Origin: a virus
IMG/VR virus record: IMGVR_UViG_3300038607_000022
DNA length: 39,122 nt
Direction: 5' to 3' (one strand)
Shown: positions 1,227 through 21,359 of the stretch, piece by piece
How the letters are laid out: each line of letters opens with the position of its first letter
Position numbering within the stretch: position 1 is the first letter of the stretch
Program-made: the position numbers and the translations under genes
Notes under the pieces: model-generated
Seen by the model: only the letters and a program-made list of their open reading frames with translations
What the model was told of the DNA's origin: nothing
Database searches by the model: none

Positions 1227-1739
1227 ATGAGTGTAAATAAAGTTCTTCTTCTGGGAAATGTAGGTAAAGACCCAGAGATTAGATATTCAAATGACGGAAC
1301 AGCTTTCGCCAATTTAACACTGGCAACATCTGAGAAATGGAAAGATAAACAAACGGGTGAGCAGAAGGAAAAAACAGAGTGGTCAAACCTTGTTTTTTCT
1401 GGTCGATTAGCTGAGGTTGTTGGTCAGTATGTAAAAAAAGGCTCTAAACTTTATGTTGAGGGCAAATTGAATACGCGCAAATGGCAAGACCAGCAAGGTC
1501 AAGACCGATACACCACAGAGATTAAGGTTTTAAGCATGGAGATGCTAGATAGCAAGCCTGCGAACCAAGGAACGCAACAGCCTGTTAATCAAGCCTTCCA
1601 ACAACCACAACAACAAGGCGGCTTTAACCAGTCGCCACAGCAGCACACAGGCGTTAATCAGGTGCAACAATCACCGCAACAATGGCAGCAACAGCAAGCG
1701 GGATTTCAAGGAGGTCAACAGCAGATGCCGGGAAAGTAA
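1227..1739 (+). CDS. ssb: Single-stranded DNA-binding protein, zero-frame product lacking the acidic tip
   Basis: OB-fold N-terminus ([16 protein letters not shown]...[15 protein letters not shown]...[10 protein letters not shown]) and a Q/G/P-rich linker. Ends PGK-stop without the usual DDDIPF tail. Confidence 0.9.
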
Positions 1740-1789
1740 ACCCGCAAGAGCCGTCAATTGATTTTGATAATTCAGACATTCCGTTCTGA
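1730..1789 (+). other. ssb: -1 frame extension of ssb encoding the canonical SSB C-terminal tip
   Basis: Slippery G_GGA_AAG at 1730-1736. The -1 frame reads [19 protein letters not shown] then stop at 1787-1789. AAGGAGGT lies at 1708-1715. Confidence 0.65.
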
Positions 1790-1913
1790 GGAATAGTATC
1801 GCCGCTCTATATGGGCGGCAATAACACGTATCTAATGCGCAAGCTCGCGCAGTCGCATTTAGGAAGGGTTATTTACTCAACTAAAATAAATACGAAATAA
1901 TTGCATTTTATAC

Positions 1914-3196: not shown

Positions 3197-3580
3197 ATGA
3201 AAAAAGAAATAATCATACACTGTAGCGCAACGCCCAATGGAAGGCCGCACACAGCAGAAGATATTCATCGATGGCATACGGAGCGCGGCTGGTCTGGTAT
3301 TGGTTATCACAAAGTTATCCGAACAAGCGGTATTGTTGACGATGGAAGGCCAGAATATTGGCAAGGCGCACACGCCAAAGGTCATAATAAAAACTCTATT
3401 GGTATCTGTTTGATTGGTACAGATGAGTTTTCAAGCGCTCAGTGGTCGTCTTTAAAAGCATTAATTGAATGTTACAAAGAAGTTTACCCGGGCTGTAAAA
3501 TAATTGGCCACAACGAAGTAAGCGACAAAAAGTGTCCGGGCTTTGATGTTCAAGAGTGGCTTAAGCGGGAGCAAATATAA
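3197..3580 (+). CDS. N-acetylmuramoyl-L-alanine amidase endolysin (Amidase_2, T7-lysozyme-like)
   Basis: IIIHCSATP, GWSGIGYH, AHAKGHNKNSIGICLIG and HNEVSDKKCPGFDV motifs. GAGG 8 nt upstream of ATG 3197. Confidence 0.85.
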   Translation: MKKEIIIHCSATPNGRPHTAEDIHRWHTERGWSGIGYHKVIRTSGIVDDGRPEYWQGAHAKGHNKNSIGICLIGTDEFSSAQWSSLKALIECYKEVYPGCKIIGHNEVSDKKCPGFDVQEWLKREQI

Positions 3581-4077
3581 TGAGTTGGAAAAAAACTTTA
3601 AGCGCTATTGCGCCGACACTGGCAACCGCTTTAGGTGGCCCTATTGCAGGAACTGCCGCTAAATTTATATCTGATAAGTTTCTAGGCGGTGAAAGTGTTA
3701 GTGAAACTGATATTGAGCAGTTTGTTTTAAACGCTAATCCAGAGCAGTTATCTGAAATAAAGAAAGCCGACCATGAATTTAAGTTGCAAATGGAAAAGCT
3801 CGGCGTAGATGTTTTCGCGCTTGAAGTTAAGGATAAGGAAAGCGCTAGAGAGCATAACAAGCAATCGTCTATGCCAGCGGTTTTGTCTGTGTCGCTAACT
3901 GTTGTCATAGGGCTGTTGCTGTATGCTTTGTTTTATATCGAGCCGCCACAAGGCGCTAAGGAGCCATTGCTAATAGTTTTAGGGATGGTTGTAAAAGAAT
4001 GGTCAAACGCTATGCACTTTTGGTTTGGCACAACTAGATCAAGCCAAGACAAAACAAAGCTTATCAAGTATAATTAA
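3580..4077 (+). CDS. Putative holin (3-TM, GTA-type holin-like)
   Basis: Start overlaps the endolysin stop. MSW...GGPIAG N-terminus, central charged helix and C-terminal hydrophobic segments resemble the 3TM holin family. Confidence 0.55.
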   Translation: MSWKKTLSAIAPTLATALGGPIAGTAAKFISDKFLGGESVSETDIEQFVLNANPEQLSEIKKADHEFKLQMEKLGVDVFALEVKDKESAREHNKQSSMPAVLSVSLTVVIGLLLYALFYIEPPQGAKEPLLIVLGMVVKEWSNAMHFWFGTTRSSQDKTKLIKYN

Positions 4078-18853: not shown

Positions 18854-19210
18854 ATGGGCTTGCGTAAAAAACTAGACCTTAGCTGGAAGGGTAAAGAATA
18901 TCCTTTACTGGTTACGATGGAAGTTGTTGACCGTGTGGAAGATCACATCAATACAAGTCTTTTATCTGTTCAGCTATCTAAGGGTGATATTCGCTATTCT
19001 AAATTAGCTAAATTCGTTGCTTTAATGCTTAACGAAGCTGGTGCGGATGCGACACAAGAGGAAGTGTATTGCGAGGCTTTTAGTAATGGCTCTGCTGGCG
19101 TTGTAGAAATACAAGAAACAGTCGGCGCTATGCTATCAGCCTTCTTCCCTGAACAGAAAAAAAAAGAAAGCTCCGCAAAGACGAAACCGAAGGCAGTGAA
19201 AGCGGCTTAG
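18854..19210 (+). CDS. Tail assembly chaperone (gpG analogue)
   Basis: Position before the tape measure gene. Contains an A9 slippery run near its 3' end. Confidence 0.75.
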   Translation: MGLRKKLDLSWKGKEYPLLVTMEVVDRVEDHINTSLLSVQLSKGDIRYSKLAKFVALMLNEAGADATQEEVYCEAFSNGSAGVVEIQETVGAMLSAFFPEQKKKESSAKTKPKAVKAA

Positions 19211-19410
19211 ATTTTACTGTTATTTATGAAGCTTTGGTGGGGCGGTTAAATATCGCCCCTTCGGAGTATTGGCGAATGACTCCGGCAGAGGCTTTTAATT
19301 TGCTTGAGCTTAACCGACCTAAGCACATCAACGGCATTCCAGAAGAGGATTATCATTCTATGATGGATAGACGGGAAGAGCTAGAAGCGCAAGGGGTTAA
19401 TGTTCTGTAA
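19153..19410 (+). CDS. -1 frame extension of the tail assembly chaperone (gpT analogue; fused product spans 18854..19410)
   Basis: The -1 frame is open from 19153 to TAA 19408-19410. A_AAA_AAA lies within the A9 run at 19157-19165. The extension contains ...APSEYWRMTPAEAFNLLE..., a chaperone-like motif. Confidence 0.75.
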   Translation, partial: TEKKRKLRKDETEGSESGLDFTVIYEALVGRLNIAPSEYWRMTPAEAFNLLELNRPKHINGIPEEDYHSMMDRREELEAQGVNVL

Positions 19411-21359
19411 TGTCTAATTCAGTTATAGGCGCTTTAAGCGTCAAAATCACAGGAGACGCAGCCGAACTAAAAAGAGCGTTAAAAGAAACCTCTGGAAGTC
19501 TCGATGCTGTATCAAAAAAAGCCCGTCAAACCGCTAACGCATTTGGCAAGATGGGCGTTGCCCTTGGGGCGGCTGCCGCTGCTGCAAGTGCTGCAATAGT
19601 ATCCGCAAACCTAAAAACAATCGACTCCTTAGCAAAGACCGCTGATAAGCTAGGTTTAACTACCGAAGCTTTACAGGGTTTGAGGCATGCCGCAGAGTTA
19701 ACAGGTGTTAGCTCTCAAACTATGGACATGGCAATGCAGCGCATGACCCGTAGAGTGAGCGAGGCAGCGCAAGGCACGGGCGAAGCAGTAAAAGCGATTG
19801 ACGAACTAGGCTTATCTGCTGAATCGCTCGCGCAATTATCACCAGACCAACAAATGCTTAAAATTGCCGGGGCAATGGAGCAGGTAACCTCACAAGGTGA
19901 TCGCGTCCGTCTAGCAATGAAGCTTTTCGACTCGGAAGGTGTTTCGTTAGTTAATACACTGGCAGCAGGCGAGGAAGGCTTGCGCGGCATGATTAACGAG
20001 GTTGACGAATTAGGCGCGGCTATTAGTCGTTTCGATGCGGCTAAGATTGAACAAGCCAATGATGCTTTTACCCGAGGCACTTTAGCTGCTAGTGCGTTTG
20101 GAACTCAATTAACTGTAGAGGTCGCGCCGACGTTAACCGCTGTTGTCGATTTACTAACTGAAACGAGTGATGGAGCCAGTATTTTAGGCGTTACTGCTCA
20201 GAATGTGTTTAGTGGAGCAACTAAAGTTGTCAGTGTTTTCGCTGATGGCTTGCGCGGTATACACGTGATTATAAAAGCGCTTGAGGTCGGCTTGTTCGGC
20301 TTTAGCTCCATTATGTCGTCAACCATGAAAGACATTATGGGCGGTATTGATACGGCGATTGATTTTGCTTTAGAGTCGATCAATAAGCTGATTGCAGTGG
20401 CAAATACAATACCAGGCATTGATATTGAACAATTTGTTACAGGCGATAAAAGCGCGGTAACGCAGTTCTTTACCGATATTGCGGATGAAGCAACCTCAAA
20501 AATGAGAGAGGCGCAGGCAGAGTTAAAAGATTTATCTTTACAGCCTTTGCCGTCCGAAGTCATAGATGAGTTCATACAAAACGCTAATACGTTAGCAGAT
20601 GAGAGAGCCAAGGCAACTGCTAAAGCAATCGAGCAGAAGCAGCAAGAGAAAACCGCACTTGACGAGATAGAAAACCAAGGCGGCACAGCGGTTGATCGTT
20701 ATCAAGCTGAAACCGTTGGATTGCTCGAAGCTATGGGGATGCGCTTCACCTCAGTTGAGGAAATGCAACTAGCACAAAATGCGCGTGAAATGGAGCTTTT
20801 ACAGCAGCAGTATGACAACAAGCTAATTAAAGAAGCAGAATTTCAAGACAAGAAAACAAAAATAGAAAGGACTAACCAAGAATTGCAGCGCAAAATGCTT
20901 GTATCTAGTCTTCAGCAGGGCTTTGAGGCTTTACGCTCTAATAGCAAAAAAGTCGACAAAGCCATGAAAGCGGCAGCAGTTGTGCAGGCTGTTATCAAAG
21001 GTAAGCAAGCAGCTGTTGATGCGTGGCAAGCTGGTATGTCTACAGGTGGGCCTTGGGCTCCAGCAGTGGCGGCGGCATATACAGCGGCGAGTATTGCAAG
21101 AACAGCTTCAATGATTAGTTCTATCAATTCGGGCGGCAAGTCAATGTCTGGTATGAGTGGCGGCGGCGGTATTCCGTCTGCGGGCGGTGGTTCATCCGCT
21201 GCAGCACCGCAAGCACCAACACAGGAGCCACAAGCTGATAGAAATGTTACAATAAACTTAACAGGTGATAGTATGTATAGCACCGACCAAGTTAGAAACC
21301 TAATAGAGCAGATTAACGGTCAAGTGGGCGATGGTCTGACACTTAACACAGGAACTTAA
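19410..21359 (+). CDS. Tape measure protein
   Basis: 649 aa, Ala-rich and helical, follows the chaperone pair. Gly-rich C-terminal region. Confidence 0.85.
   Translation: MSNSVIGALSVKITGDAAELKRALKETSGSLDAVSKKARQTANAFGKMGVALGAAAAAASAAIVSANLKTIDSLAKTADKLGLTTEALQGLRHAAELTGVSSQTMDMAMQRMTRRVSEAAQGTGEAVKAIDELGLSAESLAQLSPDQQMLKIAGAMEQVTSQGDRVRLAMKLFDSEGVSLVNTLAAGEEGLRGMINEVDELGAAISRFDAAKIEQANDAFTRGTLAASAFGTQLTVEVAPTLTAVVDLLTETSDGASILGVTAQNVFSGATKVVSVFADGLRGIHVIIKALEVGLFGFSSIMSSTMKDIMGGIDTAIDFALESINKLIAVANTIPGIDIEQFVTGDKSAVTQFFTDIADEATSKMREAQAELKDLSLQPLPSEVIDEFIQNANTLADERAKATAKAIEQKQQEKTALDEIENQGGTAVDRYQAETVGLLEAMGMRFTSVEEMQLAQNAREMELLQQQYDNKLIKEAEFQDKKTKIERTNQELQRKMLVSSLQQGFEALRSNSKKVDKAMKAAAVVQAVIKGKQAAVDAWQAGMSTGGPWAPAVAAAYTAASIARTASMISSINSGGKSMSGMSGGGGIPSAGGGSSAAAPQAPTQEPQADRNVTINLTGDSMYSTDQVRNLIEQINGQVGDGLTLNTGT

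Follow-up and report, generated by a model that had tools for sequence, protein, structure and literature searches.

The ssb gene of a viral genome, IMG/VR record IMGVR_UViG_3300038607_000022, very probably carries a programmed −1 ribosomal frameshift site, from which two forms of SSB, the protein that binds single-stranded DNA (ssDNA), would be produced: a 170-amino-acid (aa) form lacking the acidic C-terminal tip (SSB-Ct), and a 187-aa form bearing it. The whole stretch of DNA analyzed (39,122 nt) is referred to below as the window. The proposal is based on comparison of sequences, and draws on five lineages of related phages and on nine further viral genes in which the same arrangement recurs.

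A preliminary description of the window, made without database searches, had noted that the zero-frame ssb open reading frame (ORF) ends in QQQMPGK without an acidic tip, which is read directly from the sequence. It had also noted an SSB-like tail in the −1 frame, and this tail resembles the C-termini of SSBs from Colwellia and Thalassotalea. The heptamer that it had pointed out is, by its codon register, a true X_XXY_YYZ heptamer with an adjoining stop codon, and the Shine-Dalgarno (SD)-like sequence that it had placed upstream lies at a spacing of exactly 14 nt. The features of the gene are as follows.

1227–1739, plus strand: zero-frame ssb ORF (from the ORF list), encoding the 170-aa product without tip, ending ...QQQMPGK.
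1233–1547, plus strand: OB-fold DNA-binding core, residues 3–107 (match to PF00436).
1548–1729, plus strand: coding region of a Gln/Gly/Pro-rich disordered linker (from the translation).
1708–1715, plus strand: internal SD-like sequence AAGGAGGT, encoding Q-G-G, a putative 5′ frameshift stimulator.
1716–1729, plus strand: spacer of 14 nt between the SD-like sequence and the heptamer.
1730–1736, plus strand: slippery heptamer G_GGA_AAG, in zero-frame register.
1737–1739, plus strand: zero-frame stop codon TAA, directly 3′ of the heptamer.
1736–1789, plus strand: −1 frame extension of 17 codons plus TGA (1787–1789), present only in the predicted 187-aa frameshift product.
1760–1786, plus strand: acidic SSB-Ct tip DFDNSDIPF in the −1 frame, matching the tips of cellular SSBs.
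1801–1819, plus strand: GC-rich hairpin with a 7-bp stem and a 5-nt loop, after the −1 stop (fold prediction).

The SSB of the window matched the PF00436 profile over its full length (E = 2.5e-36, 124 bits). Among the features of the SSB family, a linker is found, but no tip is encoded in the zero frame; the tip forms the last residues of the predicted 187-aa product only. The linker contains indels and varies in length and sequence among relatives. At the heptamer, the ssb frame reads CCG GGA AAG, satisfying the X_XXY_YYZ register, and a homology search showed that the −1 tail is nearly identical to the Colwellia and Thalassotalea C-termini. The hairpin at 1801–1819 appears to mark the functional 3′ end of the gene, which fits the −1 stop as the gene end; the related gene L084, introduced below, likewise has a hairpin after its −1 stop. 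The SD-like AAGGAGGT is followed 9 nt on by an in-frame ATG at 1725 and resembles a perfect internal start, which would encode only MPGK-stop. The heptamer occurs three times in the window against 3.7 expected copies and is unremarkable by itself, so the case rests on comparative evidence. What goes beyond chance is the conjunction of the elements, and its conservation in relatives.

To find relatives, 5.8 billion proteins were searched using the hypothetical fused protein as the query. About a dozen phage-type relatives were recovered, which in an alignment of the clade are 70–77% identical to the protein of the window. Among the 120 matches listed, 14 deviate from the tip pattern: seven (including P0001) lack the tip residues, two end directly after DFDDD, and the rest have tip variants or extended tips. 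The clade relatives were found through the OB domain and not through the tail, and DNA was fetched for the truncated matches. Five lineages have a zero-frame product ending in GK-stop, and all five contain GGAGGT-N14-GGGAAAG-TAA/TAG together with an intact tip in the −1 frame. The four lineages other than the window are listed below.

L084, from an NCBI assembly: −1 tail of 18 residues.
L085, from JGI: −1 tail of 18 residues.
L086/L087, from two ENA assemblies: −1 tail GKVTPQGPSIDFDDDIPFWYNDCLR.
L088, from JGI: −1 tail GKVVGGQAPQAPSMDFDQDIPF.

In L088 both the linker and the tail differ, and the SD, the spacing, the heptamer and the stop are unchanged. Between clade lineages, identity at third codon positions of the OB domain was 44–68%, and only 8 of 31 fourfold sites (26%) and 7 of 33 twofold codons (21%) were invariant across all five. 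All synonymous positions of the SD (GGA, GGT) and of the heptamer (the G of the preceding codon, GGA and AAG) were invariant. Because synonymous sites elsewhere are near saturation, the conservation of the cassette is not explained by closeness of the lineages. The codons of the −1 tail vary synonymously (CCG/CCA/CCT, GAG/GAA, ATT/ATC, TTC/TTT), and six pairwise comparisons of the window, L084, L085 and L086 gave 3, 9 and 17 tail differences at codon positions 1, 2 and 3, respectively. The tail is thus under purifying selection in the −1 frame, a pattern not expected of a dead tail. Conservation in related phages, which the preliminary description had suggested as a check, was found for the heptamer, the SD and the frame arrangement alike, in the five clade lineages and in nine other viral genes.

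To investigate the occurrence of the cassette elsewhere, IMG/VR was scanned for the pattern SD-N14-heptamer-stop. Among 18 matches, 17 were chance occurrences in non-SSB sequences. The remaining one, L254, encodes a protein of ssDNA-binding type whose zero frame ends ...GGYQQQPGK and whose −1 frame reads VIDFDDSIPF. A second, frame-agnostic scan of IMG/VR for GGGAAAG located 5–35 nt upstream of DNA encoding DFDxxIPF returned nine contigs (L254, L306, L330 and L388–L393). In all nine, the heptamer lies in the X_XXY_YYZ register of a long upstream ORF and the −1 frame encodes the tip; in-frame genes are absent from the set. A zero-frame stop directly follows the heptamer in seven of the nine (12 of 14 overall), and lies one codon further on in L393 and three codons further on in L392. 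The same scan returned in-frame genes in 18 of 29 cases with AAAAAAG and in 8 of 11 cases with CCCAAAG, showing that it is not biased toward split genes.

Including the clade lineages, 14 cassette genes were thus available, with the heptamer and its register invariant in all 14, and with −1 tails of 10–23 codons ending in the SSB tip. They fall into three groups with no BLAST similarity between them. The first contains PF00436 SSBs: the window clade, L392 (62–67% identity) and L391 (45–52%). The second contains phrog_44-type SSBs without a PF00436 match (L306/L389, L330, L390 and L388/L393; 32–57% identity between subgroups); the phrog_44 match itself was obtained for L306 and L388 only, L330 has no PHROG match, and L389, L390 and L393 were placed by BLAST similarity. 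The third consists of L254, a phrog_37570 protein. The spacer sequence TATCAGAATCAGC is common to L088, L392 and L393, across families, which suggests that the C-terminal cassette moves by recombination; other genes have unrelated spacers.

The upstream element was analyzed by calculating anti-SD energies, pairing each 8-mer in the 60 nt upstream with the 3′ end of 16S rRNA. The profile was near zero except for a peak 10–16 nt before the heptamer, with a mean of −8.8 kcal/mol at 14 nt. Sites of −9.3 kcal/mol or better at 10–16 nt upstream were present in 13 of the 14 cassette genes. In the window, AAGGAGGT has a predicted duplex energy of −11.9 kcal/mol and is the sole strong site in the 60 nt. 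The 14-nt spacing is the same in the window, L084, L085, L086, L088, L254, L390, L392 and L393. Such a site was found at the equivalent place in none of 123 contiguous SSB control genes, where 8-mers of this kind occupy 0.27% of linker positions, giving a chance of about 2% for a window of seven positions. For the control set, cellular Colwellia/Thalassotalea loci were reused from scans of metagenome and genome contigs with the clade alignment, in which the matches listed were mostly such cellular SSBs and not further clade members. According to a 2016 recoding review (PMC5009743), G_GGA_AAG is a site at which E. coli ribosomes shift very readily, and an SD that stimulates a −1 shift does so from 9–14 nt upstream.

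We propose the following mechanism. Ribosomes translating the linker would arrive at CC-G_GGA_AAG-UAA, where most would decode GGA and AAG normally and terminate at UAA, giving the 170-aa SSB, which has the OB fold and linker but not the acidic tip. Some ribosomes would instead undergo a one-base backward slip of both the P-site tRNA-Gly (GGA to GGG) and the A-site tRNA-Lys (AAG to AAA). The slip is probably aided by AAGGAGGU, 14 nt upstream, pairing with the 3′ end of 16S rRNA, and slow decoding of the adjoining stop codon may aid it as well. The slipped ribosomes would then read 17 codons in the −1 frame and so add a host-like SSB-Ct tip, giving the 187-aa SSB. In infected cells, the oligomers of SSB would thus carry fewer tips than subunits, in a ratio set by the frameshift efficiency. 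This would limit or tune the recruitment of SSB-interacting proteins, and could alter the ssDNA-binding mode and cooperativity.

The same parts are found in another setting. The 10-mer GGGAAAGTAR recurs at G/GT-like junctions of many phage genes that resemble tail assembly chaperones (by resemblance of sequence). The window also encodes a tail assembly chaperone of its own with the canonical G/GT arrangement, in which the G ORF (18854–19210) contains A_AAA_AAA in register within a run of nine A (19157–19165). The −1 frame then encodes a T-like domain of 81 codons, which ends at 19410, where the tape measure gene (19410–21359) begins. Ribosomal or transcriptional slippage could operate at the nine-A run. 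These chaperone-like junctions and the window's own chaperone serve as internal positive controls that support the frameshift parts.

Several observations weigh against a programmed frameshift in ssb. In L086/L087, the codon after IPF is TGG and not TGA (L086 1855–1930), and the tail continues as IPFWYNDCLR-stop; this extension may disable a tip requiring a free C-terminal Phe, or the tip may be used differently. The close relatives L004/L089 (IMGVR_UViG_3300032253_000017) and L249 (Logan SRR30503347), with about 82–85% OB-domain identity to the window SSB, end within the linker and are tip-less in all frames, so that a purely tip-less SSB is viable for such phages. The five clade lineages share ancestry and are not five independent origins, and having an intact tip was the basis on which the nine IMG/VR genes were chosen, so that they are valid for the tests of register and SD and not for conservation of the tail. 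L330 lacks an SD at the common spacing, and the spacing itself (14 nt from AAGGAGGT, 15 nt from GGAGG) is at the upper edge of the 9–14 nt range. Many −1 sites, though not all, have a stimulatory stem-loop or pseudoknot 5–9 nt downstream; no conserved structure of this kind was found (consensus −2.6 kcal/mol, no compensatory pairs, single-sequence z-score −1.7), and the only strong hairpin (1801–1819) is too distant from the heptamer to act as a stimulator. There was no Rfam match, and the phage encodes no tRNA that might affect the decoding of Lys or Gly. The predicted frameshift efficiency could be very low.

Sequencing or assembly error, with a real gene that is contiguous (for example GGGAAAAG), was one of the two explanations left standing by the preliminary description. 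The short homopolymer junction is a conceivable site of error, and one added base restores a single ORF. Against this, the identical 170-aa product is present on at least 23 contigs (31 index blocks) of the Logan, JGI and ENA assemblies, produced in independent runs with independent assemblers; most of these contigs are 34–39 kb versions of the same phage, and three copies that were fetched have identical junction DNA. The arrangement also recurs in another 13 diverged genes. Among the contiguous relatives, which follow the pattern CCn-AAR-GTn-AAC and encode PK-VNP without the heptamer, the nearest have gta-cct-aag-ata-aac, gca-cca-aag-gtt-aat and gca-cca-aaa-gtg-aac (P-K-V/I-N). The window junction, ccg-gga-aag-|gta-aac, carries an additional Gly codon, so that its cassette did not come from the contiguous form by loss of a single base. 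The Gly-Gly codons are GGT-GGA in the contiguous relatives, not GGA-GGT. We consider the chance of such an error negligible; the other explanation, a programmed shift giving products of 170 and 187 aa, is supported by the conserved arrangement, both products being predictions. An unprogrammed frameshift mutation is the least improbable of the alternatives, although still unlikely. Only the tip-less SSB would then be made, the −1 tail would be a decaying relic, and the heptamer and SD would be incidental Gly-Lys and Gly-Gly codons. The tip-less L004 and L249 show that loss of the tip is tolerated, the L086/L087 tail lacks a stop after IPF, and displaced tips without recognizable slippery sites in other loci (L007, L041/L106, L405 and L406, described below) could be products of decay. 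A relic is difficult to reconcile with the retention of D-F-D-x-x-I-P-F-stop in five lineages that have diverged by 32–56% at neutral sites, the changes in it being mostly synonymous, or with the invariance of all synonymous positions of GGA-GGT and G-GGA-AAG. It also leaves unexplained the in-register recurrence in three protein families without detectable mutual similarity, and the SD-like element at 10–16 nt in 13 of 14 cassette genes versus 0 of 123 contiguous genes.

The two isoforms might instead arise at the level of transcription, or the tail might be a protein of its own. Productive transcriptional slippage requires long homopolymer runs, typically of 8–9 or more A or T, and only runs of G3 and A3 are present at 1730–1735. 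A conserved SD at the ribosomal stimulatory distance and a strict X_XXY_YYZ register play no role in slippage by the polymerase. Addition of a base by RNA polymerase is thus a very improbable source of the isoforms, although the protein outcome would be the same and some bacterial genes use it, for example Thermus dnaX (PMC5009743). We give equally little credence to a separate small peptide, made by internal initiation from AAGGAGGT or by reinitiation after the TAA and acting as a free SSB-Ct decoy. As a ribosome-binding site AAGGAGGT is perfect, with an ATG 9 nt downstream at 1725, and a 35-codon −1 ORF has an ATG at 1682. The ATG at 1725 is in the zero frame, giving MPGK-stop only; it is present in four of the five clade lineages, being absent from L088, and is also missing from L254, L392 and L393. 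No ATG, GTG or TTG lies in the −1 frame between the SD and the tail, and the upstream −1 ATG is not conserved, L085 having no Met in the −1 stretch before the heptamer.

A programmed −1 frameshift in ssb can be compared with known systems. The heptamer is identical to that of the lambda G/GT gene, and GGGAAAGTAR is common to many chaperone-like genes. As in lambda G/GT and other tail assembly chaperones, the long form would be made by the shift in a ratio set by its efficiency, the gene is phage-encoded, and the two kinds of site coexist in the window genome (18854–19410). The lambda G/GT site shifts at a few percent, and we know of no SD stimulator for it, unlike the ssb cassette, in which an SD-like element is kept in 13 of 14 genes; lambda G/GT also serves virion assembly, and ssb serves DNA metabolism. 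Bacterial SSBs (PF00436) share the OB fold, the disordered Gln/Gly/Pro linker and the ...DFDxxIPF terminus, but cellular and most phage SSBs have an in-frame tip (182 of 234 loci in the survey), and in the window ssb it is reachable by recoding only. T4 gp32 and T7 gp2.5 are phage ssDNA-binding proteins with an acidic C-terminus, which modulates DNA binding and the recruitment of partners. Their folds are unrelated, and their tails are encoded in frame with no frameshift.

The ssb heptamer differs from the A_AAA_AAG of dnaX, which belongs to a different gene family. The SD spacing is 10 nt in E. coli dnaX and 14 nt in the ssb cassette. No 3′ stem-loop was found in ssb, and the ssb extension is a linear motif of 10–23 residues as opposed to whole domains. 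In other respects dnaX, which encodes tau and gamma, is similar: it is a replication gene with a slippery heptamer ending in A_AAG and an upstream internal SD, and it gives two isoforms with a common N-terminal body and a different C-terminal partner-binding part. In the "reversed" dnaX of some bacteria, the zero-frame stop directly follows the shift site, and only shifted ribosomes make the longer form (PMC5009743). By analogy, dnaX, particularly in its reversed form, is the nearest analogue in logic. The preliminary likening of ssb to the lambda G/GT heptamer and the dnaX internal SD was apt in light of the same review (PMC5009743). The best-supported mechanism is a standard bacterial-type −1 site, as predicted from the sequence, combining the lambda G/GT heptamer with an internal SD of dnaX or insertion sequence (IS) type.

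The apparent novelty lies in the gene class, in how small the added module is (a linear docking motif), and in the recurrence across mutually dissimilar ssDNA-binding families. The preliminary description knew of no precedent for frameshift control of the SSB tip, and the literature agrees: full-text searches, of incomplete coverage, found no report of frameshifting in ssb, the 300,000 characters covered of the 2016 recoding review (PMC5009743) do not mention SSB, and no ssb frameshifting was found in the PRFect paper or in a 2025 systematic preprint. For the recoding field, ssb would be a new conserved gene class among the few bacterial and phage −1 frameshifts, with a minimal signal consisting of heptamer, SD and adjacent stop, and no RNA structure.

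SSB acts as a hub, its few final residues bringing in more than a dozen proteins of genome maintenance. The SSB tip is a docking site for SSB-interacting proteins (PMC7145534, abstract). For E. coli SSB, engineering the tail number of the tetramer affects DNA-binding mode and its transitions, cooperativity, replication restart and viability, and tips bind weakly to OB sites (PMC4872115). A single-tailed E. coli SSB fails to complement and shows defects in replication and restart (PMC4872115). With frameshifting at a fixed efficiency, host-like tips would be present on the oligomers of phage SSB in a defined, sub-stoichiometric number. We speculate that the benefit could be tighter ssDNA binding, and that the recruitment of host nucleases and helicases to phage recombination intermediates (ssb adjoins erf) could be limited, with some access to the host replisome retained. 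The tip-less L004 and L249 suggest that this balance can reach zero tips. If the frameshift is real, a natural translational setting of tail stoichiometry would show tip valency to be a parameter tuned by evolution, and would provide SSB biochemists with natural mixed-tail oligomers. All database entries found for these proteins are of the tip-less form, the gene callers having truncated them, and phage SSBs annotated as tip-less may be mis-described.

The window is an approximately 39 kb siphovirus genome, complete or near-complete, whose genes include those for an Erf annealing protein (616–1179), terminase, major head, major tail and tape measure proteins. The neighbors of ssb vary within the clade: the window has Erf, L084 has DnaB helicase, L085–L088 have HNH, and L088 has Sak and YqaJ. 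In annotated phage records, megablast with 20 kb of the window gave no match, and distant blastn gave only OB-domain similarity of about 68%. Among cultured phages, no cassette was found in 11 Vibrio and Pseudoalteromonas phage SSB loci, or with short cassette queries against 50,697 phage records. A match in Pseudoalteromonas phage J2-1 was an in-frame hypothetical protein.

A broader reading is that SSB-tip recoding is a general, unrecognized phage strategy for sub-stoichiometric tips, in which several dissimilar families have gained the signal independently or by cassette exchange, and in which other interrupted tips are further recoding solutions. We regard this as possible, though somewhat short of probable. 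If true, the strategy would set the number of tips per oligomer, and would thereby control which host replication, repair and nuclease proteins reach phage ssDNA. The interrupted tips counted in this reading are the +1-frame tips, the stop-containing DFDDD/IPF interruptions of 10–14 nt (one of them in a cultured Vibrio phage), and a version with A_AAA_AAG.

One set of loci shows a second kind of interrupted tip. In L406 1501–2070 (P0005, Logan SRR30757716), P0077 and L405 (Vibrio phage 1.047.O._10N.286.55.F2, MG592429.1, coding sequence NVP1047O_18, a cultured phage), the SSB ORF ends right after DFDDD or DLDDD. The final IPF-stop lies 10–14 nt further on in another frame, −1 in L406 (LSKLDIPF) and +1 in L405 (SLGIPF), and DDD-IPF-stop is regained when 14 nt (TGAGTAAACTAGAT) or 10 nt (TAGCCTCGGC) are taken out. 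The arrangement in L406, with GAC as take-off codon, then a stop, and GAT 11 nt later, resembles a short translational hop, and there is no known slippery site. L020 (IMGVR_UViG_3300046534_001361, approximately 3560–3660) ends in the zero frame with ...GGGNFPQRGQ-stop and has EPPIDFDDDIPF-stop in the −1 frame, with the classical heptamer A_AAT_TTT in register about five codons before the stop. In L007 (approximately 3495), L041 (approximately 3546) and L106, the tip is in the +1 frame just past the zero-frame stop, with no recognizable +1 shift site; L041 and L106 are related and have in common ...GCCCCACA(A/G)CAATAACGGCGG. These +1 tips could reflect decay, assembly error in Gln-rich repeats, or other recoding.

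L427 760–830 (IMGVR_UViG_3300028371_000052) is a 127-codon ORF with no PHROG family, ending ...EKPAKKK, with A_AAA_AAG in register, an adjacent TAG, and VVENQPEIIDDFDDDIPF-stop in the −1 frame. It follows the logic of the ssb cassette with the dnaX heptamer, and has no obvious SD. L259 and L268 (IMGVR_UViG_3300030116_003407 and 3300025141_005390) contain a 285-aa Gly-rich ORF ending ...GGFWNKPGK-stop, with the GGAGGT-N14-GGGAAAG-TAR cassette. The long −1 extension of L268 (...IEQVGVSPSGLNIYEWNY...) presumably resembles the C-terminal chaperone domains of tail fibers, and this ORF may be another frameshifted phage gene.

Approximately 9% of the surveyed SSB genes (21 of 234) extend past the tip with conserved sequence (...DDDIPFAPIGLQY..., ...DDIPFAPEWR), such that IPF is not C-terminal. 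Examples include L014–L016, L021, L022, L036, L039, L043–45, L399, L401, L404 and others, including the Vibrio phages V039C, K242 and 1.248.O, which are cultured.

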